Translations under genes and position numbers: made by a program
NCBI GenBank assembly: GCA_035542215.1
Contig: DATKLW010000173.1
Coordinates: 1,717-65,716 of the forward strand
Origin: Thermoanaerobaculia bacterium
Lineage (GTDB): Bacteria > Acidobacteriota > Thermoanaerobaculia > UBA5066
Reading direction: 5' to 3'
DNA: 64,000 nt
The notes under the pieces: model-generated
The model's input: the letters and a program-made list of their open reading frames with translations, nothing else
What the model was told of the DNA's origin: nothing
Database searches by the model: none
In this document: piece by piece, positions 39,491-54,910 of the stretch
Layout: each line of letters opens with the position of its first letter
How positions within the stretch are numbered: position 1 is the first letter of the stretch

Positions 39491-39826
39491 ATGGAACTCG
39501 CGCTCCAGGACGACGGAAGCGTCACGGTCGTCACGTTGTCGGGCGACCTCGTCATCGGCGAGGCCGAGGCTCTCTTCAAGAGGACCGTCAGCCGTCTTCT
39601 CGAGGAAGGCCGGGTGCAGCTCGTCGTCGACTGCAGCGGCCTGCGCTACGTCGATTCATCCGGCCTCGGCTCTCTCGTGCGCGCGCTCACGACGTCCCAG
39701 CACGAAGGCGGCGGCGCGAAGCTCCTCGGCGTTCCGGCGACCCTCCGCAAGCTCCTCGAACTGACGAAGCTCGATTCCGTCTTCGAGAGTTTCGACAACC
39801 GCGACCAGGCCGTCTCCAGCTTCTAG
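39491..39826 (+). CDS. STAS-domain anti-sigma-factor antagonist (SpoIIAA-like)
   Basis: 111 aa. Motif LVVDCSGLRYVDSSGLGSLV contains the phosphorylatable Ser context. Confidence 0.85.
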   Translation: MELALQDDGSVTVVTLSGDLVIGEAEALFKRTVSRLLEEGRVQLVVDCSGLRYVDSSGLGSLVRALTTSQHEGGGAKLLGVPATLRKLLELTKLDSVFESFDNRDQAVSSF

Positions 39827-39849: not shown

Positions 39850-42273
39850 TTGGTGCAGATGGGCGACGTCGGCGAAACGGGACGGGCCGCCGAGGCCGAG
39901 TCCGCCGCTCTCGCGGAGCTGGCGCGTTGCGAGTCCGTCGCGCAGAAAGCGGCGTGGGCCGCGCGCTGGTGCGCGCGCCTTTCCGGAGCGGACGAGTCGC
40001 TCGTCTTCGGCATCGACGCGCCCTCCGGCGGCTGGATCGCCCTCGGCGCGTCCGGCTCGGGAGCCGGCAAGAGCCTCCGCCGCGTGATTCCGCGGGACGC
40101 CGGCGTCGTCCGGGAGGCCACGCGCAGCCGCACCCCCTGCGTGCGGCGCCGCGACGACGCCTCCTTCGACACCGACCCGCTGGCGCCCCTTCTCCCGGAG
40201 GGACCCGGCGTGGTCCTCGTCGTCCCGCTCCTCCTCGACAAGGACGCCGCCGGCGCGGCGGTTCTCTCGTACAGGCAGGAACCGGCTGGCGGGCGCCTCG
40301 CGAGACTCGAGGCGTTCCTTCCGGTCGCCGCCGCGGCGCTCGACCGCGCCCAGGCCGCCGAACGCAAGACGGCGGGCCAGCTCTTCGCGATCGAGCGCCT
40401 CACGAGCCTTTACGACGTCACGAAGGCCTTCGGCTCGACGATCGACCTCGGGGAGCTGTCCGCGCTCATCGCCCGCAAGGCCGCGGATTTCGCGGTCGCC
40501 GAGGTCGCGTCGCTCTGGCTCCTCGACTCCGAGGCGGGCGAAGTCTCACTTGCCGCCACGGCCGTCAACGGGAACTACGAGGTCGCGAACCCGCCCGAGT
40601 CCGTCGGAGGATCGCTCGTGGGCGACGTCCTCGCGGACCGCGCGATCGTGGCAAAGAACGCACTCGCGGACGACGACCCCCTGCGAAATGCCGACCCTTC
40701 CTACGAGGTCCGGAGCGTGCTTGCCGTCCCGCTCGTCGAAAACGACGCGCCGATCGGCGTCCTCGCCGCCGTCAACAAGCGCGGGCGCCGCCCGGAGTTC
40801 ACGGCGGGGGACGAGGAGCTGCTCGCGGACGTCGCGCGACAGGCCGTGGCCGCGCTGCGGAACGCGCAGCAGTACGAGGCCGAGAAGAAAGTCGAGGAGC
40901 TGGACGCTCTTCTCGCGGTGAGCCGCGAGATCACCTCGACGCTCGACCTCGACAAGGTCATGCGGACGATCGTGAACGCCACGTCGGCGCTGATCCGCTA
41001 CGACCGCTGTGCGATCGCGATCCTCCAGCGGGGGAAGCTCCGGATCGGGGCCGTCTCCGGCGCGGCCGAGGTGGACCGGAAGGACGCGTCGGTCAGGCGG
41101 AGCGAGGCGCTTCTCGAGTGGGTCTTCTTCGGCGGAACCAACGTCGCCGTGACGCGCCACGAGGACGACACGATCTCGAGCGACCGCCCGGAGACCGAGG
41201 AAAAGTTCCGGACCTTCTTCGACGAGAGCGGCCGCAACGCCTTCTACGGCGTTCTGCTCGAGGATGACGAGGGGAAGCTCGGCGTCCTCGGCTTCGAGGC
41301 GACGGAGCCTCTCGAGTTCGATTCGGAGACCCGCGACCTTCTCCAGATCCTCGTCAACCAGGCCACGGTCGCCGTCCGCAACGCCCAGCTCTACGAGCAG
41401 GTCCCCCTGCCCGGGTTCCTCCGGCCTCTCGCGGAGCGCACCCGCAAGCTGAGGCAGCAGCCCGGCGGCCGCGCGCGGCGGTGGGCACTCGGGAGCGCCG
41501 CCGCCCTGCTCCTCCTCGCCGTACTGCCGTGGAACGTCCGGGTCTCCGGGCCCGCGCGCGTCGTGCCGGCCCGGAGGATTCCGGTGACGACGGCCGTCGA
41601 GGGCGTCGTCGAGAGCGTGGCGCACCGCGAGGGGGACGCGGTGGCCGCCGGGGCCGTCGTGGCGACGCTTCGCGACGACGCCTACCGCGCAGCTGCGGCC
41701 GAAGCGCGAGCGGCCGAGCAGATCGCCGAGGCCGAGGTCTCCCGCCACCGCGCAGAGGGAAACGTCTCGGCCCTGTTCCAGGCGGTCGCCCGGCGTGACG
41801 AGATGCGCGCGCGCGCGGCACTCGCCGGGGAGAAGCTCAGGCAAACGAGCCTCCGCGCGCCCGAGGCCGGCGTCGTCCTGACGCCGCGGCTCGAGGAGCG
41901 CGTCGGTCAGCTCCTCCCGGCCGGCGCCGAGTTCGCCGTTCTCGCCGACACCTCGGCCGTTCTCGCCGAAGTCGCCGTTCCGGAGCGGGACGCGGCGCTC
42001 CTCGCCACGGGCCAGAAAGTCGACGTCAAGGTGAACTCCTACCCCTACAGGACGTTCCCCGGGACCGTCGTCCGCCTCGGCGCGGCCGTCCGGGAGGAGG
42101 GCGAGCAGCGGTTCATGATCGCCGAGGCGCGCGTGGAAAATGCAGACGGGCTGCTCCGGCCCGGCATGCTCGGCAGGGCCAAGGTGTCGACGGGAGCGCA
42201 GCGCCTCCTCCGCGTCCTTCTCCGCGGCCCCGCGCGTTGGCTCTGGTCCCGGCTCTGGCCCCTCCTGCCGTGA
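39850..42273 (+). CDS. three GAF domains + TM helix + HlyD-type periplasmic adaptor domain
   Basis: GAF-like blocks end ...ALRNAQQYE and ...AVRNAQLYE. The TM helix is WALGSAAALLLLAVLPW. After it come a lipoyl hairpin, a coiled coil and a beta-barrel (VEGVVESVAHREGDAV..., LRAPEAGVV..., YPYRTFPGTVVRLG). The start is uncertain: TTG 39850 or ATG 39859. Confidence 0.8.
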   Translation: MVQMGDVGETGRAAEAESAALAELARCESVAQKAAWAARWCARLSGADESLVFGIDAPSGGWIALGASGSGAGKSLRRVIPRDAGVVREATRSRTPCVRRRDDASFDTDPLAPLLPEGPGVVLVVPLLLDKDAAGAAVLSYRQEPAGGRLARLEAFLPVAAAALDRAQAAERKTAGQLFAIERLTSLYDVTKAFGSTIDLGELSALIARKAADFAVAEVASLWLLDSEAGEVSLAATAVNGNYEVANPPESVGGSLVGDVLADRAIVAKNALADDDPLRNADPSYEVRSVLAVPLVENDAPIGVLAAVNKRGRRPEFTAGDEELLADVARQAVAALRNAQQYEAEKKVEELDALLAVSREITSTLDLDKVMRTIVNATSALIRYDRCAIAILQRGKLRIGAVSGAAEVDRKDASVRRSEALLEWVFFGGTNVAVTRHEDDTISSDRPETEEKFRTFFDESGRNAFYGVLLEDDEGKLGVLGFEATEPLEFDSETRDLLQILVNQATVAVRNAQLYEQVPLPGFLRPLAERTRKLRQQPGGRARRWALGSAAALLLLAVLPWNVRVSGPARVVPARRIPVTTAVEGVVESVAHREGDAVAAGAVVATLRDDAYRAAAAEARAAEQIAEAEVSRHRAEGNVSALFQAVARRDEMRARAALAGEKLRQTSLRAPEAGVVLTPRLEERVGQLLPAGAEFAVLADTSAVLAEVAVPERDAALLATGQKVDVKVNSYPYRTFPGTVVRLGAAVREEGEQRFMIAEARVENADGLLRPGMLGRAKVSTGAQRLLRVLLRGPARWLWSRLWPLLP

Positions 42274-44465
42274 GTGCCAGTCCTCGGGTCCCGGCCTCGC
42301 GATACGTCTCGGCCGCCCGCCATGGCCGTGCGGCCGAGGCCCTCGAGGCGCGCCACGGCGTCCGGCTCGACCGTCCCGCCCTCCGGAAAGATCTCGTCAT
42401 CCGGCGCCAGGTTCGGATCGGCGAGGTGACCTGGGTCGTCAAGCAGCCGGAGACGAACAAGTTCTACAACTTCGACGACGACAACTGGACGCTGATCGAA
42501 CTCTTCGACGGGACGCGGACCCGGATCGAGATCCTCGAGGAGTACCGCCGGCGATTCCCGGGAGGCGACACCGCGCTCACGCTCATCCTCGACTTCGAGG
42601 AGATGCTCCGCAAGGTCGACCTGCTCGAGCAGTCCGCTCCCGAGAAGAACCTCCAGCTCCTGTCGAAGTTCAGGAACCTGAGGCAGCGTGCGGCCGAAGA
42701 GAGAGCGGAGGGCTTCAACGTCCTCTTCATGCTCTTCAAGGTTTTCGACCCCGACAAGATCCTCGATCGGACGCTCCGGTACGTCCGATGGATCTGGCGC
42801 CCGCCGGTCGTCGCCGTCGCCTGCCTGACGTTCGTCTTCACGATCTCGGTCTTCGCGAGCCGCTTCGACACGATCTGGGCCCAGACGATGGAGCTCTACG
42901 CGTTCCTGAAAAAGCCGTTCTGGGAGTTCGTCCAGTTCTGGGTCATCCTGACCGGCATCGGCGCCATACACGAGTTCGGCCACGGCTACGCCGTGAAGAT
43001 GTACGGGGGCGAGGTTCACGACATGGGGATCGCGCTCCTCTACTTCATGCCCGCCTTCTACTGCGACACGACGGACTCGCTTCTCTTCCCGACCAAGTGG
43101 CAGAGGCTCACCGTCACGGTGGCCGGGATCTACATCGAGGCGATCCTCTGCACGATCGCGACGGCGCTCTGGGTGGCGAGCTACCCCGACACGTTCATCC
43201 ACGACGTGGCCTACAGGATCATGCTCTTCACGGGGGTTTCGACGATCTTCTTCAACATCAACCCCCTCGTGAAGATCGACGGGTACTACGCCCTCTGCAG
43301 CCTCACCGAGATCCCGGAGCTGCGCGAGGAATCGTTCCACTGGCTCGGGGCCCTCTTCCAGCGCCAGGTCCTGCGACTGAACGTCGAGGTGCCGGTCGTC
43401 TCGCGGCGGAAGAAGCGGATCTTCCTGATCTACGGGCCGCTCGCCCTCGGCTACATCGGCTTCATCATGGCGTTCATCGCGAGGCTCCTCGACAACTTTT
43501 ACTCGAAAGTGGTCCCGGAGCTGGCCGTCGTCCTGCTCCTCGTCACGCTCTACTTCTTCTTCCGGAAGAGGGTCCGCCTCGTCGTCCGCATCTCCCGCCT
43601 CTTTTATCTCGACAAGAAGGAGCTCGTCATGTCGCCGCGGGCCCGCCTGCCCCTCCTCGCCGCCGCCGCCGGCCTCGTTCTCCTCCTTGCCGTCCCCTGG
43701 GGCCGGCGGACGATCCGGATGAACGCCGTTCTCGAGCCCGCCGTGTCCATGAAGGTGGAGGCCCCGGAAGACGGGTTCGTCCGGCAGGTCTTCGCGCGCG
43801 AAGGAGACCTCCTCCGGGCGGGCCAGCCTCTCTTCCAGATCGAGAGCCCCGGCGTCACGGCCGATACTGCGTCCGTCTCCGCCCGCCACACCGGGGCCAC
43901 CGACGAGACGGAACGGAGCCTCTGGTCCGGAGATGCCGGGAGCGCCTATCGGGCCGAGCGAAAGCAAGGGGCGACCGCGGCCGGCCTCGCTCTCGACCAG
44001 GCGCGCACGGCGCGGCTCGCCGTGCCGAGCCCGATGGACGGGCGGCTGCTGACGGCAAGGACGGAAGATCTCGCCGGCCGGTGGGTCACGGCGGGCACGC
44101 CGCTCGCGACCGTCGGCGATACGCGGCAGATGACGGTCGCGTTCCCCGTGTCGGAAAGGCTGCTGACGGACCTCGCCGTCGGGGCGCCGGTGGCGGTCCA
44201 GCTCCGCGAGCGCCCGTTTCGGATCCTCCGCGGATCGATCGTCTCGATCGCCGCCGCATCAAGGGCGGCGCCGTCCGACGCTCCCTCGGCCCTCCGCCCT
44301 TCGGAGATTCCCGGCCGGATCGTCGCGGTCGCGCGCTTCGAAAATTCCGACGGGAGCCTGAAGCCGGGGCTCGAGGGGCTGGCGAAGATCGCGGGACCCC
44401 GCAGCTCGCTCCTGGGAGAGGGATTCCGGATCCTCTCCCGCTGGTTCCGCCGGATCGCCTGGTGA
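42270..44465 (+). CDS. PqqD/RRE-like N-terminal domain + M50 (site-2 protease) membrane metalloprotease + C-terminal HlyD-type adaptor domain
   Basis: - The GTG overlaps the previous stop; the track ORF begins at 42237.
- The N-terminal region WVVKQPETNKFYNFDDDNWTLIELFDGTRTRIEILEEY looks PqqD-like.
- Zinc site IHEFGHGYAV; second S2P motif NINPLVKIDGYY.
- C-terminal part: EDGFVRQVFAREGDLLRAGQPLFQIE...PMDGRLL... Confidence 0.8.
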   Translation: MSASPRVPASRYVSAARHGRAAEALEARHGVRLDRPALRKDLVIRRQVRIGEVTWVVKQPETNKFYNFDDDNWTLIELFDGTRTRIEILEEYRRRFPGGDTALTLILDFEEMLRKVDLLEQSAPEKNLQLLSKFRNLRQRAAEERAEGFNVLFMLFKVFDPDKILDRTLRYVRWIWRPPVVAVACLTFVFTISVFASRFDTIWAQTMELYAFLKKPFWEFVQFWVILTGIGAIHEFGHGYAVKMYGGEVHDMGIALLYFMPAFYCDTTDSLLFPTKWQRLTVTVAGIYIEAILCTIATALWVASYPDTFIHDVAYRIMLFTGVSTIFFNINPLVKIDGYYALCSLTEIPELREESFHWLGALFQRQVLRLNVEVPVVSRRKKRIFLIYGPLALGYIGFIMAFIARLLDNFYSKVVPELAVVLLLVTLYFFFRKRVRLVVRISRLFYLDKKELVMSPRARLPLLAAAAGLVLLLAVPWGRRTIRMNAVLEPAVSMKVEAPEDGFVRQVFAREGDLLRAGQPLFQIESPGVTADTASVSARHTGATDETERSLWSGDAGSAYRAERKQGATAAGLALDQARTARLAVPSPMDGRLLTARTEDLAGRWVTAGTPLATVGDTRQMTVAFPVSERLLTDLAVGAPVAVQLRERPFRILRGSIVSIAAASRAAPSDAPSALRPSEIPGRIVAVARFENSDGSLKPGLEGLAKIAGPRSSLLGEGFRILSRWFRRIAW

Positions 44466-44538: not shown

Positions 44539-44973
44539 TCAGTCGTTCTGCGTCGAACGCGCGTTCAGCGTCCGCGGAGCCGCCTGCGCGCGGGTCGCAT
44601 TGAGCCGCGGAGCCGCCTGAACACGGGTCGCCTGGACCCGGGGGGCCGCCTGCGCGCGGGTCGCATTGAGCCGCGGAGCCGCCTGAACACGGGTCGCCTG
44701 GACCCGGGGCGCCGCCTGTGCGCGGGTCGCATTGAGCCGCGGAGCCGCCTGGGCACGGGTCGCCTGGACCCGGGGGGCCGCCTGCGCGCGGGTCGCGTTG
44801 AGCCGCGGAGCCGCCTGAACGCGGGCGCTCGCGACCTTGGCCGACGTCGCCGGCGTCACGGCCGGGTTGTTGCCGAGGTTGCTGACGCGGATCTCACCCA
44901 TCTCCTGGCCCGTCGCCTCCTTGATCTTCGCCTTTTGCTCGTCGGTCAGTTTGATTCGAACCTCGTTTGCCAT
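44539..44973 (-). CDS. tandem-repeat peptide/protein: 40-aa Lys/Glu-rich leader-like N-terminus + 8 x 11-aa R(A/V)QAAPR(V/L)(Q/N)AT repeats
   Basis: In frame with track ORF 44539..45030. ATG 44971-44973 lies behind AAAGAGGAGG. Sequence: MANEVRIKLTDEQKAKIKEATGQEMGEIRVSNLGNNPAV... followed by the repeats. No signal peptide, TM helix or Cys. Confidence 0.75.
   Translation of the reverse strand: MANEVRIKLTDEQKAKIKEATGQEMGEIRVSNLGNNPAVTPATSAKVASARVQAAPRLNATRAQAAPRVQATRAQAAPRLNATRAQAAPRVQATRVQAAPRLNATRAQAAPRVQATRVQAAPRLNATRAQAAPRTLNARSTQND
44572..44835 (-). repeat. 8 contiguous 33-bp tandem repeats (two alternating subtypes, 66-bp period) encoding the 11-aa units
   Basis: On the + strand the two unit types alternate with only a few substitutions. 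One type is CCGCGGAGCCGCCTGAACACGGGTCGCCTGGAC and the other is CCGGGGGGCCGCCTGCGCGCGGGTCGCATTGAG. Confidence 0.9.
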
Positions 44974-45038
44974 GGTCTGCCTCCTCTTTCGTCTTTCGGT
45001 TTTGCTTTCGTCTTCGCGATGGCCAGGCAAACCTCAAC

Positions 45039-45054
45039 TGCAAGAGGGGGGCCA
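45039..45054 (-). promoter_or_regulatory. sigma-54 (-24/-12) promoter candidate for the repeat-peptide gene
   Basis: The minus strand reads TGGCCCCCCTCTTGCA, with GG and GC at the exact consensus spacing of TGGCAC-N5-TTGCA. It lies ~65 nt upstream of the ATG. A sigma-54 activator gene is directly upstream. Confidence 0.65.
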
Positions 45055-45151
45055 GAACCGATCCGGCCGCCCGCCTCGTGCAAGTGCTTGAGAAAGCGTC
45101 GAGGACCGCCCGCGGCCGCTATGCCAGCTCGATGACTTTTTCAACTTCGGT

Positions 45152-45162
45152 TGACTGAGTCA
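45152..45162. promoter_or_regulatory. perfect palindrome TGACTGAGTCA, candidate enhancer (UAS) site
   Basis: The palindrome lies ~100 bp upstream of the -24 element. An additional TGACT half-site sits at ~45132. Confidence 0.35.
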
Positions 45163-45175
45163 CCCCATCGTCCAT

Positions 45176-46552
45176 TCAGAGGCGGTGCTTCCGGCAGAGG
45201 TACTTCATCTGGTTCGCGTCGAGGCCGAGCGCTTCGGCTGCACGGGCCTTGACGCCTCCGGCGCGGGCGATGGCCTGGCTCACGAGCTCCTTCTCGAATC
45301 TCTTGACCGAGATGGCGAAGGAGAGCCCGGGGGGAACCGGTTCGCCGGCACCGGAAGCGCGGCTCAGGGTTCCCGGCAGGTGCTCCGGACCGATCGTGTC
45401 CCCGTCCACCATCAGCGTCAGCATCTCGACGAGGTGCTCGAGCTCGCGCACGTTTCCGTGGAACGGGTGTCTCGCGAGCGTCTCGAAGGCCGCCGGCGAG
45501 AACGTCTTCGGATCGCGGCCGTGACGCGCGGCCGCCCGCGCTGCGAAGAAGTCCACGAGGAGGGGGACGTCCTCGCGCCGCTCCCTCAGCGGCGGGATCC
45601 TCAGGGTGACCGTGTTGAGGCGATAAAAGAGGTCGTTGCGGAACGTCCCGGCTGCCACGCGCTGCTCGAGGTCTTCGTTCGTGGCCGCGACGAGCCGGAT
45701 GTCGACGTGGATCGTCTTCGTCCCGCCGACCCGCTCGAAGTCGTGGCGCTCGAGGACGCGCAGGAGTTTGGCCTGGACGGCCGGCGAAAGCGTCGCCACC
45801 TCGTCCAGGAACAGGGTCCCGCCGTGTGCGAGCTCGAACCGTCCGGCCCGGGAGGCCACGGCGCCGGTGAAAGCGCCCCGCTCGTGGCCGAAGAGCTCGG
45901 ACTCGGCGAGCGTCTCCGTGAGCGCGGAGCTGTTCACGGCCACGAACGGACCGGCCTTCCGCGGACTGCCCCGGTGAATCGCCTCGGCCACGAGCTCCTT
46001 GCCCGTCCCGCTTTCGCCGGTCACGAGGACCGTCGCGTCGGTGGGCGCGACCTTCTCGATGAGGGCGAAGAGCGCCCGCATCCCCGGGCTCTCGCCCACG
46101 AGCCCGCCGTACGACTCGCGCCTGAAAACGTCCTCCTTCAGCGCGCGGTTCTCGGCAAGGATTCGGTGCCGCTCCATGGCCCGCCCGAGGACGTGCAAAA
46201 GGTCCGACTTCTCGAGAGGCTTGCGGAAGAAATCGAACGCCCCCATTTCGATGGCCTTGAGGGCCCAGCGGCGTTCCTTTTCGGCCGTCATGACGACGAC
46301 GGTGGCATCCGGCTGTCGCTGCCGGATGGCCTGCAGCAGGCGGAGGCCCTCTTCCGCCTCGCCCGAGGGCGGCAGCCGAAGGTCGAGGAGATAGACGTCG
46401 GGCTCGAGCTCGGCGAGCCTCAGCCCCTCGACGGCATCCCGCGCCGAGTGGACTTCGAATCGTTCCCGGAGCGCCCACACGAGCTGATCGAGGAGGAGCG
46501 AGTCGTCCTCGACGACGGCGAGACGCCCCTCCACCCCTCGGCCCGGGCCCAC
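45176..46552 (-). CDS. sigma-54-dependent response regulator (NtrC family: REC + AAA+ + HTH)
   Basis: The receiver carries DVYLLDLRLPP. The AAA+ domain carries [15 protein letters not shown] and [15 protein letters not shown]. The C-terminal HTH is RAAEALGLDANQMKYLCRKH. Confidence 0.93.
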   Translation of the reverse strand: MGPGRGVEGRLAVVEDDSLLLDQLVWALRERFEVHSARDAVEGLRLAELEPDVYLLDLRLPPSGEAEEGLRLLQAIRQRQPDATVVVMTAEKERRWALKAIEMGAFDFFRKPLEKSDLLHVLGRAMERHRILAENRALKEDVFRRESYGGLVGESPGMRALFALIEKVAPTDATVLVTGESGTGKELVAEAIHRGSPRKAGPFVAVNSSALTETLAESELFGHERGAFTGAVASRAGRFELAHGGTLFLDEVATLSPAVQAKLLRVLERHDFERVGGTKTIHVDIRLVAATNEDLEQRVAAGTFRNDLFYRLNTVTLRIPPLRERREDVPLLVDFFAARAAARHGRDPKTFSPAAFETLARHPFHGNVRELEHLVEMLTLMVDGDTIGPEHLPGTLSRASGAGEPVPPGLSFAISVKRFEKELVSQAIARAGGVKARAAEALGLDANQMKYLCRKHRL

Positions 46553-46555
46553 GGC

Positions 46556-47248
46556 TTAGACCCGCCGCCCGCGTGCGGCCGGAAGCGGCAGCAGCAGACG
46601 CACGCACGTGCCCTCGCCCCCGCTCCTCACCTCGACGTCGCCGCGGTGGTGGCGCAGGATCCTGCGGGCCGTGTAGAGCCCGAGCCCCACGCCTCCAGGC
46701 TTCGTCGTCTGGAACGGCCGGAAAAGGCGCCGCCGCACGAACTCGTCCGCCATTCCAGAACCATCGTCTTCGACCTCGACCACCGCAAAGTCCCGCCTGC
46801 CGCGACGTTCGACGCCCGTCCGGACCGTCACGCAGCCAGCCGCGGCTTCCTGGGCGTTCTGGACCACGCTCTGGATCGCCTCGCGCAGGTAGTAGGGGTC
46901 GCCCCAGACCACGGGGACCTCTGCGAAGCTCGTGCTCATCCGTGGCGCGGATCGGCCGCGGGGCCGGGACGTCCGAAGGACCTCCTGCAGCAGGTCGTTC
47001 AGCTCGAGCGGGACCTTGATGAGGACGGAGTCCCGGTGAGCCGACCAGCTCCGCGCGATCCCGTCGAGCTTCTGGACGGTCGCCTGCAGGAGGTCCGTGG
47101 CGCTGCGCCTGAAGTCCGGATCGGCGTAGTGCTCCTCCATGTTCGAGAGGAGAAGGCTCAGCCGAAGCTCGAGGTTCCGGATGTCGTGCAGGAGGACCGA
47201 GTCCTGCGTGGACCGGACGCGGCGTGAGCCGGACGGACGTTTCGGCAT
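46556..47248 (-). CDS. soluble histidine kinase (HisKA + HATPase_c, no sensor/TM domain)
   Basis: H-box LLHDIRNLE. N/G boxes VVQNAQEAA, VEDDGSGM, GGVGLGL. Confidence 0.85.
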   Translation of the reverse strand: MPKRPSGSRRVRSTQDSVLLHDIRNLELRLSLLLSNMEEHYADPDFRRSATDLLQATVQKLDGIARSWSAHRDSVLIKVPLELNDLLQEVLRTSRPRGRSAPRMSTSFAEVPVVWGDPYYLREAIQSVVQNAQEAAAGCVTVRTGVERRGRRDFAVVEVEDDGSGMADEFVRRRLFRPFQTTKPGGVGLGLYTARRILRHHRGDVEVRSGGEGTCVRLLLPLPAARGRRV

Positions 47249-47252
47249 GACC

Positions 47253-48044
47253 TCAGCGCCGGGCTGCCGCCGCGTGGAACGTGAGTTTCACCGCCATGCC
47301 CGGCCGCAGCACACGTTTCGGATCCCGCTTCACCTGCACGATCACCTGCACCGTTCCGCTGCCCGGGTCGATCACGGGGCTGATGAACGAGACGCGACCG
47401 CTCGAGAGCGCGTCCGGGAAACCCGGGGCCTCCACGGTCACCTCGTCGCCCGCCCGCACGGTCTGGAGGCTCGAAGCCTGCAGGTAGGCGCGCGCGAGGA
47501 GCGGCTCGAGCGCCATGACCTTGAAAAGGGGCTTGCTTTCCTCGAGGAGGAATTTCTCGCCCACCCGCGCGTACCGGTCCGCCACGACCCCGTCGAAGGG
47601 AGCCCGCACCACGGACCGGTCGATCACGAGCTTCGCCCTCTCCAGTTCCACGAGGGCCAGTTCGTAGCGCGAATGCTTCTGCTCGAACTCGGCCTCGCTC
47701 GTCAGGTTCAGGCGGCGCAGCTCCTCGTACCTCTTGAGGTCCGCGTGGCTCACGGCGAGCGTCTCCTCGGCGGCCTTCAGGTCCAGCAGGAACTCGCGCT
47801 GGTCCAGCGTGGCAAGCGGCTGCCCCTTCTTCACGAACTCGCCCCTCTCGGCCTGGATCGAGTCGATGACGCCGCTGACCCGGGTCGTCACGGAGACTTC
47901 CTGCTCGACCATGAGGTTCGAGGAGACGGTGAGCGGTTCCGAAGCAGCGGGGGATTCCGACACGCCGGCCAGGGACCGGGCGAGCGCGAAGAAGGAGACG
48001 GCGACGAACGCCCGACCGGAAAGCCGGATTGGATCGCACGTCAT
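47253..48044 (-). CDS. short HlyD/RND-type periplasmic adaptor (membrane fusion protein), no cognate pump adjacent
   Basis: Motifs SGVIDSIQAERGEFVKKGQPLATLD and VRAPFDGVVADRY. N-terminal signal/anchor. Confidence 0.8.
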   Translation of the reverse strand: MTCDPIRLSGRAFVAVSFFALARSLAGVSESPAASEPLTVSSNLMVEQEVSVTTRVSGVIDSIQAERGEFVKKGQPLATLDQREFLLDLKAAEETLAVSHADLKRYEELRRLNLTSEAEFEQKHSRYELALVELERAKLVIDRSVVRAPFDGVVADRYARVGEKFLLEESKPLFKVMALEPLLARAYLQASSLQTVRAGDEVTVEAPGFPDALSSGRVSFISPVIDPGSGTVQVIVQVKRDPKRVLRPGMAVKLTFHAAAARR

Positions 48045-48095: not shown

Positions 48096-49181
48096 TCAGA
48101 TCTTCCAGAACCAGCCCTTCTTCTCGAAGACCCTGAGGACGGCCCACCAGAACAGGATCGTGGCGAGGGCGAACGCGTGCGAGCGGAGCGTGGGATCCGC
48201 GATCCACGAGAAGCCAGAACGGTAGATCCACGCGTGGAGGGTGATCGCCTTCCCCGCCGCGTCCGTCCATTTGACGAGTCCCATCGTCTTGGCGAGGAGG
48301 CCCGAGAGGACGAAGACGAGGAGCGGGTTCGTCCCGAACGTGAAGAACGGCGCGAACGGTCTCTTCACCCGGAGGACGTCGATCACGAGAACGCACAGAC
48401 CGATCGTGAGGAGCGCAGCGCCCGACGTGAAAACGACGTAGGAGGCCGTCCAGAGGTTCTTGTTGATCGGGAGGAAGCGGCCCCACAGGAGTCCCGCGGC
48501 GGTCGCGGCGGCGCCCCAGACGAGAAGTTTCGCGGCCTTCGTCTTCGCGCCCGCGGCGCCTTTCAGCAGGAAGCCCGTGAGCGTGCCCGTGAGCATCGTC
48601 GCGATTGCCGTCAGGGTCGACACGATCCCCTCGGGGTCCCAGCCCTGCGCGTTCTTCCAGAGATGGCCCTTGAGGACCGCGAGGTCCACGGCGCGCTGGA
48701 CGTTGCCCGCGGGCGTGAGGTCGTAGCCCGTCCCGAGGAGGATCCACGTGTGGAGCGCGAGGAGTACGGCGACGGCCGCGGTAACGCCCGCCCACCTCCT
48801 CTTCCAGACGGCCAGCAGGATGCAAGTTCCGAGAGCGTATGCCACACCGATGCGCGGGAGGACGCCGGGGATGCGCAGACGCGAGAGGCGCTCGAGGAAC
48901 GGCACGAACGGGTAGAACGCCATGAACCAGCCGACGAGGACGATCGTCATCCCGCGGCGGAACGCGTGGCGGGCGAGGTCGAGGCGGCTCGCTCCCTGCG
49001 CCATGCGCTTTTCGAGCGAGAAGACGCCCGCGACGCCGACGATGAAGAGGAACCACGGGAAGATGAGGTCCGTCGGAGTCCAGCCGTGCCACTCCGCGTG
49101 GTCGAACGGCCAGTAGAGGTGCCCCCAGTCGCCCGGGTTGTTCACGAAGACCATCCCGACGACCGTCAGGCCGCGGAACAT
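48096..49181 (-). CDS. DUF1624/DUF5009-type membrane acyltransferase (heparan-alpha-glucosaminide N-acetyltransferase-like); 5' end questionable
   Basis: The sequence MFRGLTVVGMVFVNNPGDWG...WHGWTPTDLIFPWFLF is polytopic. The in-frame upstream codons encode ...EKEQRLAALD without any start codon (see findings). Confidence 0.75.
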   Translation of the reverse strand: MFRGLTVVGMVFVNNPGDWGHLYWPFDHAEWHGWTPTDLIFPWFLFIVGVAGVFSLEKRMAQGASRLDLARHAFRRGMTIVLVGWFMAFYPFVPFLERLSRLRIPGVLPRIGVAYALGTCILLAVWKRRWAGVTAAVAVLLALHTWILLGTGYDLTPAGNVQRAVDLAVLKGHLWKNAQGWDPEGIVSTLTAIATMLTGTLTGFLLKGAAGAKTKAAKLLVWGAAATAAGLLWGRFLPINKNLWTASYVVFTSGAALLTIGLCVLVIDVLRVKRPFAPFFTFGTNPLLVFVLSGLLAKTMGLVKWTDAAGKAITLHAWIYRSGFSWIADPTLRSHAFALATILFWWAVLRVFEKKGWFWKI

Positions 49182-49238: not shown

Positions 49239-49375
49239 GGGAGAAGAGGGAAATGAAGATTTTCTTGGAAGGTAAATACACGCGGCAGCAGCAGCGGCGC
49301 GGGCGGCCTCGGATGCGCCGCCCTTCCCCTCTTCACCTTCAAAGAAATTCTTCTCTTTCTCTTCTCTTTCTAAGC
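49239..49375. repeat. inverted pair of the dispersed motif between/into divergent genes (coordinates +/-1)
   Basis: The arms are GGGGAGAAGAGGGAAATGAAGATTTTCTTGGAAGGTAAATAC and CCCTCTTCACCTTCAAAGAAATTCTTCTCTTTCTCTTCTCTTTCTAAGC. Confidence 0.8.
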
Positions 49376-50950
49376 AGCATTCTCTTCGCCCTTTCGTCCT
49401 GCACGACGATCCCCGCTTCACTCCACGTGATGCCCGCGGACGATTCCCTCGCCCGCCACGTCGCGAGGCTCGCGGCGGGCAGCGGGGCGCACATGGGGAT
49501 CGTGGCGCTGCACGTCGAGAGCGGGCGCCGCCTCGAGCTGAACGCCGGCGAGTCCTTCGAGGCCGCGAGCGTCATCAAGATCGCGCTCCTCGCCGAAGCC
49601 GCGGCGCGCGACTCCGAGGGCACGCTCGACCTGACGGACCGCTGGAAGCTCACCGCGAAGGCCGTCGCCGCGGGCTCCGGCATGCTCGACGAGTTCGACC
49701 CCGGCCTCACCCCCACGAACCGGGACCTTCTCTCCCTGATGATCGCGATCTCGGACAACACGGCCGCGAACCGGTTCATCGACCTTTTCGGCGCCGCGGC
49801 CGTCAACGCGAGGATGGAGAAGCTCGGCCTCCCCGGCATCCGCCTCGTCGGGCGCATCCCGGACCGCGGCCACGAGCCCGGCAAGTGGGCGCCGCTCGGC
49901 GTCATCACGCCGGAAGCCGCCGCCGAGTACTACCGGCGCGTCGCGACGCGCACGCTGATCGACCCGGCGTCCGACCGCGTCGTCGCGAAGCTCCTTGCCG
50001 TCCAGCACTCGAAGGACCGCCTCCCCCGCCTCCTCCTCGACGACGCCGCGTCGTCATGGGCCGGCAAGACCGGGAGCTACGGCGGCGTCCGCAACGACTC
50101 CGGCATCCTCACGACGAAGAAGGGCCGCTTCGTTCTCGTCGCGTTCGCGGACGGCATCCCCGACCGCAAGGGCGCCTCGGCGCAGGCGACGCGTGCGATG
50201 GGCGACATCGCCGCGGCGATCGTGAACGCATGGTCGGCGTCGCTTCCGGACGTCGCCCCGGCGCCCGAGCCGCCGGCCGTCCCCGCGCTGCGTCCGGCCG
50301 TCCCGCGGATGGAAACGACGCTCGCCGAGGCGCGCGCGGCGACGCAGCCGTCGGACCTCGTCCGCGTCTACCGCGACACCGACCGGCGCTTCTGGGACGC
50401 GTGGGCGCTCGCCGGCGGCGACACGCGCGACGCCTGCCTCATCCCGATGCCGAACAGCTGGTGGGAGGGATTCCGCCCTTGGAAGATCGAGCCGATCTCG
50501 GCGCTCATCCTTCACCACACGTCGCAGGCCACGGACGAGGAGTGCATCGAGCTCTTTCAGAAGCCCGAGAGCCGCGTCTCGTCGCACTTCCTCGTCGGGA
50601 AAGACGGGCGCCTCTACCAGTTCGTCTCGCTCGAAGACCGGGCCTGGCACGCGGGGCCGTCGCTTCTTCACGGGCGCGTGGCCCTCAACCGGACCTCCGT
50701 GGGCGTCGAGATCACGGGCGACGGGAACAAGTATCCGTTCACGCCGGCGCAGATCGAAACCGTCGTCCGGCTCGTCGGCGTCCTGACGGCGATGTTCGAC
50801 ATTCAGGCGCCGTGGATCGCCGGCCACCAGCACATCGCCCCGGACCGAAAGGACGACCCCGGCGCCCTTTTTCCGTGGAACGATGTCGTCCGGCGGGGGC
50901 TCGAGCTGTCCGAGACCCTGCGCAAAAAGGGGCTCGAGAAGGGGGATTGA
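49313..50950 (+). CDS. lipoprotein: class-A beta-lactamase-like serine hydrolase domain fused to AmpD-type N-acetylmuramoyl-L-alanine amidase (Amidase_2)
   Basis: - Track ORF 49253..50950. The internal ATG (residue 21) gives MRRPSPLHLQRNSSLSLLFLSSILFALSSC with a lipobox.
- Beta-lactamase-like motifs: ASVIK (SxxK), SDN, KTGS.
- C-terminal amidase part: ILHHTS..., VSSHFLV, AWHAG, GVEI. Confidence 0.8.
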   Translation: MRRPSPLHLQRNSSLSLLFLSSILFALSSCTTIPASLHVMPADDSLARHVARLAAGSGAHMGIVALHVESGRRLELNAGESFEAASVIKIALLAEAAARDSEGTLDLTDRWKLTAKAVAAGSGMLDEFDPGLTPTNRDLLSLMIAISDNTAANRFIDLFGAAAVNARMEKLGLPGIRLVGRIPDRGHEPGKWAPLGVITPEAAAEYYRRVATRTLIDPASDRVVAKLLAVQHSKDRLPRLLLDDAASSWAGKTGSYGGVRNDSGILTTKKGRFVLVAFADGIPDRKGASAQATRAMGDIAAAIVNAWSASLPDVAPAPEPPAVPALRPAVPRMETTLAEARAATQPSDLVRVYRDTDRRFWDAWALAGGDTRDACLIPMPNSWWEGFRPWKIEPISALILHHTSQATDEECIELFQKPESRVSSHFLVGKDGRLYQFVSLEDRAWHAGPSLLHGRVALNRTSVGVEITGDGNKYPFTPAQIETVVRLVGVLTAMFDIQAPWIAGHQHIAPDRKDDPGALFPWNDVVRRGLELSETLRKKGLEKGD

Positions 50951-53038: not shown

Positions 53039-54910
53039 ATGCGCCACGCCCGCGCCCTGGCCGCCGCAGCCGCCGCCCTTCTTCTCTTCTTCTCATTCGG
53101 AGACATTTCCCGCGCCGCCTCCCCCGCCCCGGTGCAGCCGGAGAAGACCGCCGTCGTCGTCACGGCGGTCCAGGACCTGTTCACGCGGCCGGACGAGACG
53201 TCGAGCGTCGACGACCAGGCGATCCTCGGCGACCGCCTGACCGTCCTCGAGGACGCCGCGGGCTTCGCGAAGGTCCGGACGGCCGCCGGCGAGATCGCGT
53301 GGATTCCCGAGCGGGCGCTCCGCCGCGGCGCCGGCGCGGAGGCGCCCGCGAAGGACGCCAGGTTCGCGCGCGTGACGTCGAATTTTGCGCACATTTACGC
53401 GAGCCCGTCCTTCACGAAGCAGAAGCCGCTTCTCACGGCCCCGGTCGGGGCAAGGATGGAAGTCGGAGATTTCTTAGAAGGTGAAGAGAACCGGGCGAAT
53501 GGGCCGGGCCGAGCGAGTGACGCCTTCTCCTGGGTGAAGGTCCGTCTGCCGGATGCGCGCAACGGTTTCGTCGCCGCACGCGACGTCTCCCTCTTCCCTT
53601 TCAAAGAAAATTCTTCTCTTTCTCTTCCTCTCGGTTCTCCGTCCGACTGGATCGCGTTCGGAAAGCGCTTCCTCGGCGCGCCGTACACGTGGGGAGGGAC
53701 GACGCCGCTCGGATTCGACTGCTCCGGGCTGATGACGCGGATCTTCTCCGAGCACGGCGTGACGCTGCGCCGCAACAGCTACGAGCAGGCGTTCCAGGAC
53801 CCGCAGCTCGTGCCCGTCGCGTTCGAAAAGCTCCGCCCCGGCGATCTCCTCTTCTTCGGCACGGAGGACAAGATCGACCACGAGGCGATGTGGATCGGGG
53901 ACGGCACCGTCCTCCAGGCCACGCGGAACAACGTTCCGGGCGTGCAGGTCACGCCGTTCGACAGCCCGTTCCTGAAACCGCGTTTTCGCTATGCCCGGCG
54001 GCTCAAGAAGACCGAAGAGAAGATTTCTTCGAAAGGTGAAGAGAGCGGCGGGCCGCGCCTCGACGCCGCGAAGGTGCGCCGGCTCGAATCCACACTCGAA
54101 GAAATCTCCCGCGCCAGCGGGGCTCGCTTCGGCATCTGGTTCAAGGACCTTTCGACAGGTCTTTCACTTTCCCAGAATCCCTCACTGGTCATGCACGCCG
54201 CCTCCACGATGAAGACGCCCGTCCTCCTCGAGCTCCTCCGCCGTGTGGACGCGGGAACGGTGAAGCTCTCGGACGAGCTGCCCGTGAAGAACGAGTTCAA
54301 GAGTCTCGTCGACGGTTCGCCGTTCTCGATCGGCCTCGAGGAGAACGACGGCCCGACCGCGGCATACCTCGGGAAGAGCGCCACGATCGGATTTCTCGCG
54401 CGGGAGATGATCGTCCGCTCCTCCAATCTCGCGACGGACATTCTTCTCGCGTTCCTCGGGCCGGCCGACGTCCAGAAGTTCACGGACGAGCTCGGCGCGC
54501 CGACCGTGAAGGTGCGACGCGGCGTCGAGGACCTCAAGGCTTTCGAGAAAGGGCTGAACAACGAGACGGACGCGGCCGGGATGGGCGCCGTGATGGAAGC
54601 CGTCGTCCGGACGCCGAAGCTCTCGGCGGCGGCGAAGGCGAAGGCGTGGGAGATTCTCGCCGGACAGACGTTCAACGAGGAGATTCCGGCGGGCCTCCAC
54701 CCGCAGTCGGGCGCCGTCGTCGCACACAAGACGGGGACGATGTCGACGTCTCAGCACGACGCCGCGATCGTCCGCCTGCCGGACGGCCGCGAATATGTCC
54801 TCGTCCTCCTCGCGAACGACTTCGGCGCGACCGAGGCGGGCCGTGAAAGGGTCTACGCCGCGGCGCGGAAGATGTCGCGGGCGGTCTGGGAGGCCATGAT
54901 CGCGCCCTGA
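53039..54910 (+). CDS. secreted SH3-like + NlpC/P60 peptidase + class-A beta-lactamase-like serine hydrolase fusion
   Basis: The signal peptide ends RAAS. The NlpC/P60 domain carries APYTWGGTTPLGFDCSGLM...DHEAMWIGDG. The C-terminal domain carries ASTMK (SxxK), SSN and HKTGT. Confidence 0.85.
   Translation: MRHARALAAAAAALLLFFSFGDISRAASPAPVQPEKTAVVVTAVQDLFTRPDETSSVDDQAILGDRLTVLEDAAGFAKVRTAAGEIAWIPERALRRGAGAEAPAKDARFARVTSNFAHIYASPSFTKQKPLLTAPVGARMEVGDFLEGEENRANGPGRASDAFSWVKVRLPDARNGFVAARDVSLFPFKENSSLSLPLGSPSDWIAFGKRFLGAPYTWGGTTPLGFDCSGLMTRIFSEHGVTLRRNSYEQAFQDPQLVPVAFEKLRPGDLLFFGTEDKIDHEAMWIGDGTVLQATRNNVPGVQVTPFDSPFLKPRFRYARRLKKTEEKISSKGEESGGPRLDAAKVRRLESTLEEISRASGARFGIWFKDLSTGLSLSQNPSLVMHAASTMKTPVLLELLRRVDAGTVKLSDELPVKNEFKSLVDGSPFSIGLEENDGPTAAYLGKSATIGFLAREMIVRSSNLATDILLAFLGPADVQKFTDELGAPTVKVRRGVEDLKAFEKGLNNETDAAGMGAVMEAVVRTPKLSAAAKAKAWEILAGQTFNEEIPAGLHPQSGAVVAHKTGTMSTSQHDAAIVRLPDGREYVLVLLANDFGATEAGRERVYAAARKMSRAVWEAMIAP
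53468..53632. repeat. inverted pair of the dispersed motif inside the SH3-NlpC/P60 gene (arms 53468-53490 and 53591-53632)
   Basis: The arms are GATTTCTTAGAAGGTGAAGAGAA and CTCTTCCCTTTCAAAGAAAATTCTTCTCTTTCTCTTCCTCTC. Confidence 0.8.
54015..54046. repeat. single copy of the dispersed motif at the NlpC/P60 - beta-lactamase-like domain junction
   Basis: GAAGAGAAGATTTCTTCGAAAGGTGAAGAGAG, translated EEKISSKGEES. Confidence 0.75.

Follow-up and report, generated by a model that had tools for sequence, protein, structure and literature searches.

The analyzed stretch of DNA (the window) comprises 64,000 nucleotides of a Thermoanaerobaculia bacterium (Acidobacteriota; GCA_035542215.1, contig DATKLW010000173.1) and harbors a seven-gene module with the order STAS > GAF-GAF-HlyD > RRE-M50-HlyD > < peptide < sigma-54 regulator < kinase < HlyD. 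The first gene (39491-39826, +) encodes a 111-aa STAS-domain protein (Pfam STAS, E = 4e-17). It is followed by a gene (39850-42273, +) for a protein with cytoplasmic GAF sensor domains (Pfam GAF, E = 5e-25), one predicted TM segment (residues 545-563) and a periplasmic membrane-fusion (MFP) domain (HlyD_D23, E = 5e-21). The third gene (42270-44465, +; the start is set by homology, the ORF opens at 42237) encodes a 731-aa fusion of a PqqD-like domain, predicted as an RRE, an M50 site-2 protease core, a TM segment and an HlyD domain. Convergent to it, the peptide gene (44539-44973, -) encodes a 144-aa protein. Upstream of the peptide gene are an NtrC-type response regulator of REC-AAA+-HTH_8 architecture (45176-46552, -; Pfam Sigma54_activat, E = 6e-70), a short histidine kinase of 230 aa with an H-box and HATPase_c (46556-47248, -; E = 2e-19) but no sensor domain and no TM segment, and a small stand-alone HlyD/MFP protein of 263 aa (47253-48044, -; TIGR01730 RND_mfp, 148 bits, above cutoff), which is the first gene of the HlyD-kinase-regulator operon.

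The repeat peptide gene and its control region

The peptide ORF starts at ATG, preceded by the ribosome-binding site AGGAGG (44985-44980, -) six bases upstream, and a GGAGG-type site is present in nearly all homologues. The product consists of a 40-aa leader region, MANEVRIKLTDEQKAKIKEATGQEMGEIRVSNLGNNPAV (44854-44973, -), a short linker, an array of 7.6 x 11-aa repeats and a 6-aa C-terminus. An earlier note, made from the sequence alone, had described eight nearly identical 11-residue units. This was slightly generous. TRF located the array at 44572-44825, where a 33-bp period gave only 78% matches, whereas a 66-bp period gave 93% matches over 3.8 copies. At the protein level, the array spans 44823-44560 (-), and seven full 11-mers alternate between R(V/A)QAAPRLNAT and RAQAAPRVQAT and are followed by a degenerate eighth unit, RAQAAPRTLNA, so that the true unit is 22 aa (3.5 x 22 aa). 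In agreement with the note, the product has no Cys and no hydrophobic segment. A tblastn search with the leader found only this one copy in the window. A G+C-rich hairpin between the convergent genes (44504-44477; 11-bp stem, 10 GC pairs), which the note considered a shared terminator, is followed by the T-run GTGTTTTCG on the minus strand only, and represents a predicted intrinsic terminator for the peptide gene.

The predicted sigma-54 promoter, TGGCCCCCCTCTTGCA, lies at 45054-45039 (-), with TGGC at -24 and TTGCA at -12. It has the form TGGCCC-N5-TTGCA, in agreement with the GG and GC elements and the spacing of the consensus TGGCAC-N5-TTGCW. In this window alone the element is not significant, as the loose pattern gave 3 matches against 1.2 expected. 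However, TGG(C/T)-N8-TTGC was found upstream of 84 of 86 homologous genes, with GG and TGC invariant at the same spacing. The palindrome pointed out in the note, TGACTCAGTCA (45162-45152), was confirmed and is the core of GGTGActcagTCAAC (45164-45150), which is followed by a second inverted repeat, GTTGAaaaagTCATC (45145-45131). The pair (45131-45164, -) lies about 100 bp upstream of the promoter and contains probable binding sites for the adjacent sigma-54 activator. Perfect GTTGA-N5-TCAAC-type repeats occur at the same position in 34 of 77 loci, against 2.5% of shuffled sequences. Thus, the observation made in the note is confirmed.

Conservation of the leader, the tails and the module

To assess whether the gene belongs to a family, we collected its homologues, which formed more than 130 clusters at 50% identity. 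More than 130 homologues shared the same architecture, reading frame, start, RBS and promoter. Across more than 70 species the leader is about 80% conserved, whereas the tails differ completely between species, with units of 4-22 aa in up to about 30 copies that are basic or acidic and never contain Cys. In an alignment of 72 sequences, M1, V5, L9, T10, Q13 and I17 of the leader are invariant, and T21, G22, E27, G34 and N36 are nearly so. The leader is more conserved than the protease itself, with about 82% against 58% identity between the window and one homologous locus (L001). AlphaFold2 predicts a short strand, a helix at residues 11-21 and a short strand for the leader, and a disordered tail. 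Searches of the leader against Pfam, NCBIfam and PDB sequences returned only noise, such as HTH_OrfB_IS605 (E about 0.1) and GnsA (E about 0.6), and a suspected ribbon-helix-helix resemblance found no support. Tail matches to Mucin-like, Apolipoprotein, histone H1-like, Extensin and Decapeptide models are compositional. The possibility of a pentapeptide-repeat beta-helix was considered for tails of the SAKNL and SAQDL types, but these and tails of the TAKDL type gave no PF00805 hit, only low-complexity matches such as PF25296 Decapeptide.

To test whether the tails are maintained by selection, we compared codons between repeat copies. Of the single-base codon differences, 77.5% are synonymous (1544 synonymous against 448 nonsynonymous family-wide; 8 against 4 in the window), compared to 27.8% expected under neutrality. 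The tails are therefore translated and constrained at the amino-acid level. Examples are APRAG x 28 (53 synonymous against 1 nonsynonymous change) and KPLA x 22 (34 against 1). Copy number varies between close relatives, whose products are 144, 123 and 100 aa long, and one homologous peptide (P0001) is the same protein minus two 22-aa units. The arrays contain 7.6 units in the window, 5.6 in locus L011 and 3.6 in P0001.

The note had proposed, as a test, that leader homologues should not occur apart from neighboring M50/HlyD genes or a sigma-54 regulator. In 71 of 80 species-level Thermoanaerobaculia loci, a leader-repeat gene lies convergent and immediately downstream of the M50-HlyD gene, and the contigs of the nine exceptions end less than 300 bp past the protease. 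The full seven-gene order is conserved: the STAS gene is present at its position in 71 of 80 loci, the rest being truncated, the GAF-GAF-HlyD gene in 80 of 80, and the small HlyD gene in all loci with enough DNA, whereas the flanking genes differ between loci. Some loci carry two or three tandem peptide genes with different tails. Four distant loci (L009, L010, L091 and L092), whose proteins share 25-43% identity with those of the window, keep the peptide(s), GAF-GAF-HlyD, HlyD and RRE-M50-HlyD, but L091 and L092 use other regulators. Relatives occur in a Gemmatimonadales-like lineage and in other lineages. All of these genomes are MAGs, so there is no cultured carrier. Within the module, the protease, the peptide, the MFP part of GAF-HlyD, the promoter and the HTH of the regulator are inherited as one cassette.

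The catalytic motifs of the M50 protein, HExxH and NPxxxxDG, are invariant in 30 homologues (H234, E235, H238, N331, P332, D337 and G338), the Pfam model PF02163 scores 32.2 bits (cutoff 27.2), and multiple TM helices are predicted. The best NCBIfam match is daptide_HExxH (NF041824; E = 1.3e-48, aligned over residues 64-442), although its 166 bits are far below the cutoff of 300. A weaker match is to YydH/LiaK (NF058609, E = 3e-12). The AlphaFold2 model contains a beta3-alpha3 domain at residues 43-115 and an MFP domain at 478-731. The PqqD-like assignment made in the note is weak for the window protein alone (E = 0.016-0.06, below the Pfam threshold), while Pfam PqqD is hit by 10 of 18 family members with a best E = 1.1e-5. 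A profile search of this domain against PDB sequences gave nothing below E = 0.3, and Foldseek with the whole model listed only MFP structures, which did not confirm the RRE fold. The Foldseek matches of the C-terminal domain, MexA, AcrA and MacA (E about 1e-13), are consistent with the lipoyl, beta-barrel and alpha-hairpin fold, with a hairpin of roughly 27 residues, and HlyD_D23 and HlyD_3 are hit in all three HlyD-type proteins. No ABC, RND or MFS transporter and no outer-membrane factor was found in the conserved module or in the flanks examined, which excluded the rest of each genome. No tailoring enzyme is conserved among the seven genes. PADLOC returned only generic AAA+ activator matches to the regulator, and Rfam returned no match.

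A putative leader-guided maturation system

We suggest that the gene encodes the substrate of a dedicated leader-guided, protease-matured peptide system, for which full-text literature searches on M50 proteases, HlyD proteins and RiPPs, daptides and their metalloprotease, RREs with site-2 proteases, GAF-HlyD-M50 combinations, RiPPs of Thermoanaerobaculia and intramembrane proteases with tandem-repeat RiPPs found no description. We consider this reading somewhat more likely than not. In this view, the sensor-less kinase, probably receiving input from the STAS and GAF proteins, would activate the NtrC-type regulator, which would bind the two GTTGA-N5-TCAAC-type sites and fire the sigma-54 promoter. 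The monocistronic message would yield a cytoplasmic pre-peptide, the strand-helix-strand leader of which would dock on the cytoplasmic RRE/PqqD-like domain, as inferred from obligate co-occurrence and from homology to the daptide peptidase MpaP. The site-2 protease would then cut near the conserved G34-x-N36-P37 junction. In the most speculative step, the disordered species-specific tail, whole or cut further, would be delivered to or through the cell envelope by an assembly of the three HlyD-type proteins. The analysis itself establishes the gene family, the conservation of promoter, activator site and gene order, and selection on the tails, whereas transcription, regulator and leader binding, cleavage, cutting into unit peptides and export are inferences from sequence. 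Several points weigh against this model: the RRE assignment of the window protein is below the Pfam threshold and its protease scores below the daptide family cutoff, the module contains no energised transporter and no outer-membrane channel, M50 proteases are not known to translocate peptides, and the same machinery would have to handle both strongly cationic and strongly anionic tails. A search for charge-swap covariation between leader and RRE found nothing convincing, as the one candidate (leader R29E with RRE E77K in loci L076, L083, L085 and L090) is offset by other loci pairing R77 with R29. Tail charge shows significant negative correlations with the charge of the RRE (r = -0.60), the GAF region (r = -0.72) and the M50 core (r = -0.56), but all acidic tails belong to one clade and the comparison is confounded by phylogeny.

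The interpretation given in the note, a multi-core precursor cleaved and exported by neighboring machinery, is only partly supported. The leader-like behavior of the N-terminus, the association with the M50-HlyD and GAF-HlyD genes, the conserved promoter and upstream activator site, the homology of the M50 protein to the daptide leader peptidase, and the absence of a conserved tailoring enzyme or ABC exporter from the module are all supported. The idea that each core ends or starts at Arg cannot be a family rule, since five loci have units with no K or R at all (SAQDL, ESADTSI, DLANSA) and 15 of 72 tails are acidic. The specific version, in which the tail would be cut at every unit (here at Arg) into identical 11- or 22-residue peptides exported as signals or antimicrobials, seems unlikely, although selection keeps the units identical at the protein level while the DNA diverges, the units are species-specific as pheromone types are, and in the distant EDRANP, RKAP and EERIAP relatives a junction motif ([ED][ED]R[AKI][NA]P) recurs before each repeat like a repeated cleavage site. 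The units are too diverse for one conserved protease to cut each of them, only 18 of 72 tails have Pro in the unit, the module contains no second protease, the unit in the window is 22 aa with two sub-types, and regular structural polymers would show the same selection signature.

Such a functional intact polymer, a disordered polycation or polyanion that might bind envelope or matrix polymers or nucleic acids or protect against stress as LEA proteins do, with the leader merely targeting it to the membrane complex with or without cleavage, is about as improbable. It would fit the predicted disorder, the composition dominated by A, R, K, S and T with virtually no aromatic residues, the low-complexity hits, the maintained array lengths of 50-150 residues and the similarity of the regulators to PrsK/PrsR, which control low-complexity secreted PEP-CTERM proteins. 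However, charge sign, period and motif are not conserved between species, the invariantly intact active site argues for processing, and the strict conservation of the unit sequence exceeds what a composition-only function would require. More doubtful still is a regulated-proteolysis device in which the conserved N-terminus is an effector acting on, for example, the kinase, the regulator or the STAS protein, released or destroyed by the protease, and the tail is only a spacer or degron. The N-terminus is the most conserved part, the module is rich in signaling domains, and site-2 proteases such as RseP and SpoIVFB classically act in signaling. Yet a spacer would not show purifying selection on each unit, some loci carry tandem peptide genes with different tails, and the distant relatives that swap regulators tie the peptide to the MFP/protease core rather than to the sigma-54 circuit. 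Finally, long ORFs are common in high-G+C DNA (70% here) and short-read MAG assemblies can mis-size arrays, so that the copy number of 7.6 is that of the assembly. A chance ORF or artefact is nonetheless effectively refuted by the homologues and the synonymous excess, and long arrays are also present in long-read assemblies with Mb-scale contigs (loci L043, L055 and L087).

A more far-reaching possibility, not excluded but unlikely on present evidence, is that the peptide and its three HlyD-type partners form the core of an unrecognized, phylum-crossing envelope machine that would mature a leader-tagged pro-peptide and release many identical copies of a short species-specific peptide without a canonical ABC, RND or MFS motor. 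This would be a bacterial counterpart of eukaryotic tandem pro-hormones, serving as a kin- or species-specific signal or weapon, with the protease-peptide block as an exchangeable specificity cassette analogous to agr pherotypes. Independent of this, the data define a large precursor-peptide family without a match in the libraries searched, in at least 71 species-level Thermoanaerobaculia genomes, and a predicted RRE-site-2 protease-MFP architecture whose only link to known biology is the daptide leader peptidase. If processing and export are confirmed, this would be a route for maturing and secreting ribosomal peptides without tailoring enzymes or a recognizable transporter, and a source of hundreds of species-specific repeat peptides in abundant, uncultured soil and sediment bacteria. 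The arrays are an unusually clean case of repeats held identical at the protein level while their DNA drifts and the unit itself is replaced between species, which makes the evolution of peptide specificity directly testable, and the conserved promoter and activator site provide a regulatory map for a phylum with little genetics.

Relation to known peptide systems

In the daptide system, a small leader-bearing precursor, MpaA, is matured by MpaP, an intramembrane site-2 protease with an N-terminally fused RRE (bioRxiv 10.1101/2023.03.08.531785). The present system shares the leader, the predicted RRE/PqqD-like-M50 arrangement and a conserved Pro-containing motif at the leader end. It differs in lacking the MpaB/C/D/M set (DUF-RRE, oxidative decarboxylase, aminotransferase, methyltransferase) and a conserved C-terminal Thr (the C-termini are diverse, and the window peptide ends in TQND), and in having tandem-repeat tails, an additional C-terminal HlyD/MFP domain and an acidobacterial rather than an Actinomycetota or Bacillota host. 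Epipeptide systems (YydF with YydG/H/IJ, and LiaK-type proteases) likewise use a membrane HExxH metalloprotease for a leader-bearing peptide, and JGI names the homologues "putative peptide zinc metalloprotease protein", but no radical-SAM epimerase or ABC exporter is present here, the match is far below cutoff, and repeat tails and MFP fusions have no counterpart there. Although the bipartite precursor with a conserved leader and a variable core is that of RiPPs, the lack of a tailoring enzyme means that this is not a RiPP in the strict sense. Two distant duplicated-leader peptides match the ApyA (aminopyruvatide) RiPP model weakly (E = 8e-5, below cutoff), whereas the family leader does not.

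Multi-core pro-peptides such as cyanobactin PatE, multi-core microviridins, fungal KEX2-processed ustiloxin-type precursors and yeast alpha-factor also carry a leader followed by tandem copies of one short unit kept identical by purifying selection, and the motif preceding every unit in the EDRANP and RKAP relatives is recognition-like. In contrast, the present module has no macrocyclase, tailoring enzyme or unit-specific protease, and in some species the units lack any common cleavage residue. In the staphylococcal agr locus, the AgrB membrane protease and the AgrD precursor are inherited together as a divergent cassette inside otherwise conserved regulatory genes, and a two-component system controls the locus, as here, but the protein families are unrelated, the leader is the conserved part in our case, no receptor for the product has been identified, and the kinase has no sensor domain. 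The kinase and regulator are most similar to PrsK and PrsR of the PEP-CTERM/exosortase regulon, in which a sigma-54 promoter also drives a low-complexity, probably envelope-destined protein. Both score below the family cutoffs (regulator, 423 against 503 bits for TIGR02915; kinase, 141 against 300 bits for TIGR02916, with E = 4e-41 to the PrsK C-terminus), no PEP-CTERM motif or exosortase is present, and the proposed sorting element is N-terminal and would be read by a protease with a predicted RRE.

In logic, the proposed system resembles an unmodified leader-peptide product, such as a class II bacteriocin or a peptide pheromone, more than a true RiPP. Double-glycine-leader peptides (colicin V CvaAB, ComAB, class II bacteriocins) have a hypervariable product region and a leader removed by an export apparatus that consists of a peptidase-ABC transporter and an HlyD-family adaptor. 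Here, the peptidase is an M50 metalloprotease fused directly to the adaptor, there are three adaptors, one carrying GAF sensors, and the module contains no C39 peptidase or ABC gene. The leader junction is LG-x-NPA rather than a GG motif, although one distant relative (P0255) does carry DKVAGG.

The tandem-repeat gene and its peptide family

We first re-examined the tandem-repeat gene on the minus strand of the window. The ORF at 44539-44973 starts with an ATG located six bases after an AGGAGG sequence and encodes the 144-aa protein described in the earlier note; this observation was thus confirmed, with a correction to the repeat unit, which the note had given as 11 residues in eight copies. 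Tandem Repeats Finder placed the array at 44572-44825, where a period of 33 bp gave only 78% matches, whereas a period of 66 bp gave 93% matches over 3.8 copies. Codon by codon, seven full 11-residue units alternate between R(V/A)QAAPRLNAT and RAQAAPRVQAT, so the real unit is 22 aa, and an eighth unit is degenerate; the array defined in this way spans 44823-44560. The protein contains no Cys and no hydrophobic segment. A G+C-rich hairpin at 44504-44477, with a T-run on the peptide strand, separates the gene from the convergent gene encoding the M50-HlyD protein. No Rfam family matched the region.

To determine whether the gene belongs to a larger family, we performed a protein search, which returned 25 relatives, followed by leader-profile searches, which added more. 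An exhaustive HMMER scan of 1.84 billion cluster representatives found 136 hits, of which 79 had E-values below 1e-10. All share a nearly invariant N-terminus: M1, V5, L9, T10, Q13, and I17 are invariant in 72 sequences, and T21, G22, E27, G34, and N36 are nearly invariant. After about residue 42 the sequences become unrelated tandem repeats, examples of which are PRANT × 27, APRAG × 28, KPLA × 22, GRAAGKSIA × 16, QKAMRA × 14, SAQDL × 23, DDALR × 20, and ESADTSI × 15. Of 72 tails, 53 are basic and 15 are acidic, only 18 have Pro in the unit, and none contains Cys; five loci have repeat units without any K or R. The leader had no match in Pfam, NCBIfam, PADLOC or PDB sequences. An AlphaFold2 model based on a 34-sequence alignment predicts a short strand, a helix at residues 11-21, and a further short strand, followed by disorder with a pLDDT of about 52.

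To test for selection on the tails, we compared each codon with its counterpart one period downstream in 80 arrays. Single-base differences were synonymous 1544 times and nonsynonymous 448 times, that is, 77.5% synonymous compared to 27.8% expected from the codon content; the counts in the window array are 8 and 4, respectively. These results indicate that the tails are translated and constrained, and that the arrays are not merely recent slippage products: the amino-acid sequence of each unit is maintained within a species, yet the unit is replaced between species. Copy number is labile among near-identical relatives, with proteins of 144 aa in the window, 100 aa in P0001 (a homologous protein equal to the window protein minus exactly two 22-aa units), and 123 aa in the locus of the closest genome (L011, 12049-12543). 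This is either real strain variation or assembly collapse, and short-read collapse cannot be excluded for individual cases; however, long arrays also occur in Mb-scale long-read contigs. Long-read-derived contigs of loci L003, L004, L007, L023, and L025 show frameshifted module genes and aberrant peptide tails, for example P0011 at 233 aa and L023 at 572 aa; these are sequencing-error artefacts and were excluded from the statistics.

Genomic context, regulatory sites, and mosaic structure

A profile of the M50-HlyD protein found 141 relatives among 185,579 species-representative genomes. The best 80 of these are all Thermoanaerobaculia or Acidobacteriota MAGs, with the exception of one bin labelled Acidithiobacillales. 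Using a leader HMM on six-frame ORFs, we found a leader-repeat gene in 71 of the 80 loci, where it is always convergent and immediately downstream of the M50-HlyD gene. The nine negative contigs end less than 300 bp past the protease gene. A tblastn comparison showed one invariant order, STAS > GAF-GAF-HlyD > M50-HlyD > < peptide < sigma-54 regulator < short kinase < small HlyD, in which no ABC, RND or MFS transporter, no outer-membrane factor, and no tailoring enzyme is conserved. Five loci (L010, L051, L075, L078, and L084) carry two tandem peptide genes with different tails. In the four Thermoanaerobaculia loci among them each copy has its own match to the -24/-12 promoter, whereas the second gene of L010 has none.

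Genes outside this seven-gene block differ between loci, and in the window they are peptidoglycan-related. Two unusual fusions at 49253-50950 (+) and 53039-54910 (+) involve a Beta-lactamase2 domain, joined in the first case to an N-acetylmuramoyl-L-alanine amidase and in the second to SH3 + NlpC/P60; these are probably peptidoglycan-turnover enzymes and are not part of the module. A 361-aa ORF at 48096-49181 (-), which lies next to the small HlyD gene, had no Pfam or PADLOC hit and is conserved at that position at 62-90% identity in only 10 of 80 loci, while loci L001 and L004 have a DndB-like gene there instead.

The sigma-54-type element TGGCCCCCCTCTTGCA lies at 45054-45039, and the palindrome TGACTCAGTCA pointed out in the earlier note lies at 45162-45152. 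In an alignment of seven upstream regions, only the -24/-12 core and an inverted repeat next to the stop codon of the regulator gene are conserved. Across the family, TGG(C/T)-N8-TTGC is present upstream of 84 of 86 genes, 23-140 nt (median 31) before the ATG, and one of the two exceptions (L039) has the element with one extra spacer base. Two further matches in the window to the loose pattern TGGC-N8-TGCW, at 29710-29725 (+) and at 43522-43537 (+), the latter inside the M50-HlyD coding region, are probably chance matches, with three found in total and 1.2 expected. Perfect GTTGA-N5-TCAAC-type repeats lie 150-235 nt upstream of the ATG in 34 of 77 loci, compared to 2.5% of shuffled controls. 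The window has two one-mismatch copies, at 45164-45150 and 45145-45131, and the palindrome is the centre of the first. The regulator is a REC-AAA+-HTH_8 protein, and the kinase has an H-box and an ATPase domain but no sensor or TM segment; both are closest to PrsR and PrsK, respectively, but score below the cutoffs of these families.

Loci L076, L085, and L090 are about 85% identical to the window at the nucleotide level across STAS, the GAF domains, the REC and AAA+ parts of the regulator, the kinase, and the small HlyD. In contrast, they are only 55-68% identical from about 41290 to about 45490, a stretch covering the MFP half of GAF-HlyD, all of M50-HlyD, the peptide, the promoter, and the HTH of the regulator. 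This indicates an exchanged or diversified specificity cassette, as in agr, in which the protease, its substrate, and their control elements would travel as one unit. In 68-69 Thermoanaerobaculia loci (L011-L090 and the window), the net charge of the tail anticorrelates with that of the cytoplasmic GAF region (Spearman r = -0.72), the RRE (r = -0.60), and the M50 core (r = -0.56), whereas the correlation with the periplasmic MFP domains is weaker or absent (r = +0.10 to -0.42). These correlations are confounded by phylogeny, because the acidic tails form one clade.

The M50-HlyD protein and distant relatives

In the M50-HlyD protein, HExxH (H234, E235, H238) and NPxxxxDG (N331, P332, D337, G338) are invariant in 30 homologues that range down to 52% identity. 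The best curated match is the daptide intramembrane metalloprotease (NF041824, E = 1.3e-48, residues 64-442), although the score of 166 bits is below the cutoff of 300; the next is the YydH/LiaK epipeptide protease. JGI labels the homologues "putative peptide zinc metalloprotease protein". The daptide enzyme, MpaP, is described as an RRE fused N-terminally to an intramembrane site-2 protease that removes the leader (bioRxiv 10.1101/2023.03.08.531785). The AlphaFold2 model of the window protein (pLDDT 75) has three strands followed by three helices at residues 43-115, then a multi-helix membrane core, a last TM segment at about 456-478, and an MFP domain with a long alpha-hairpin; the MFP domain matches MexA, AcrA, and MacA at E about 1e-13. 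Three strands plus three helices is the defining RRE topology (bioRxiv 10.1101/2023.10.30.564719). Pfam PqqD was hit over its full length by 10 of 18 family N-terminal domains, with a best E-value of 1.1e-5, but with only E = 0.016 for the window protein. We regard the RRE assignment as probable, not proven.

Remote leader matches (E from 1e-8 to 1e-4) have leaders of the form KEVVIKLTDEQRxQIKSATGKD..ELKV and tails built on EDRANP, E(S/A)RKAP or EERIAP motifs. Four such loci were retrieved. L009 and L010 have the sigma-54 regulator and kinase, L091 has a BTAD/AAA regulator and Ser/Thr kinases, and L092 has an FHA-GAF-PP2C protein and three tandem peptide genes with different tails. The L091 peptide is a non-repetitive 55-mer whose protein cluster includes a Gemmatimonadales entry. 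All four loci encode GAF-GAF-HlyD, a stand-alone HlyD, and M50-HlyD, with 25-43% identity to the window proteins, while an RRE-like N-terminal stretch was detected by tblastn in L010 and L092 only. The invariant core is therefore the peptide plus three membrane-fusion proteins, and the sigma-54 circuit is a lineage-specific controller. In these relatives the motif at the leader-tail junction ([ED][ED]R[AKI][NA]P) recurs before every repeat, which is what a repeated processing site would look like. In the Thermoanaerobaculia family the junction is LG-x-N-P-A. Site-2 cleavage of SREBP has an Asn-Pro requirement, and any parallel to this junction is by analogy only.

A proposed leader-guided maturation system

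The best-supported model is a sigma-54-controlled, leader-guided maturation system, in which the leader would dock on the RRE, the site-2 protease would cut near G-x-N-P, and the repeat tail would be the product. The gene family, the conservation of its promoter element and upstream repeats, the gene order, and the constraint on the tails were shown by the sequence comparisons, whereas transcription from the promoter, binding by the regulator, leader docking, cleavage, and any export are inferred. The three MFPs, the hairpin typical of TolC-docking adaptors, and the cassette behaviour of the periplasmic domains point to the envelope as the destination, although no motor or outer-membrane channel is encoded in the module and nothing shows export.

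The evidence does not decide whether the tail acts whole or as unit peptides. The interpretation of the earlier note, a precursor with multiple cores each ending or starting at Arg, was only partly supported: unit-level purifying selection and the distant relatives favour multiple cores, but the diversity of units and the absence of any shared cleavage residue or second protease argue against a single rule such as cutting at Arg.

The system does not satisfy the definition of a RiPP because it has no tailoring enzyme, and it also does not qualify as a daptide, epipeptide, double-glycine or PEP-CTERM system. It would work most like an unmodified leader-peptide product with a novel processing protein. 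No curated model covers the peptide, and literature searches found no description of the module. Leader-dependent peptide maturation by an RRE-fused site-2 protease is itself already known, and we consider the present system to be a previously undescribed form of it. There is a real chance that it is instead a new kind of maturation and secretion machine, but this is the less likely possibility.

Some distant relatives show weak resemblance to other leader types. The peptides P0245 and P0235, which have a duplicated leader motif, weakly match the ApyA (aminopyruvatide RiPP) precursor model NF050152 (E = 8e-5, 22.7 bits, cutoff 40), hinting that the I-x-LT-x-EQ-xx-I motif may be a more general RRE-binding leader type. 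In P0255, a 57-aa relative, the family leader is followed by LSEMDLDKVAGG, which resembles a double-glycine leader end, and this peptide weakly hits the cyanobacterial CTB bacteriocin model.
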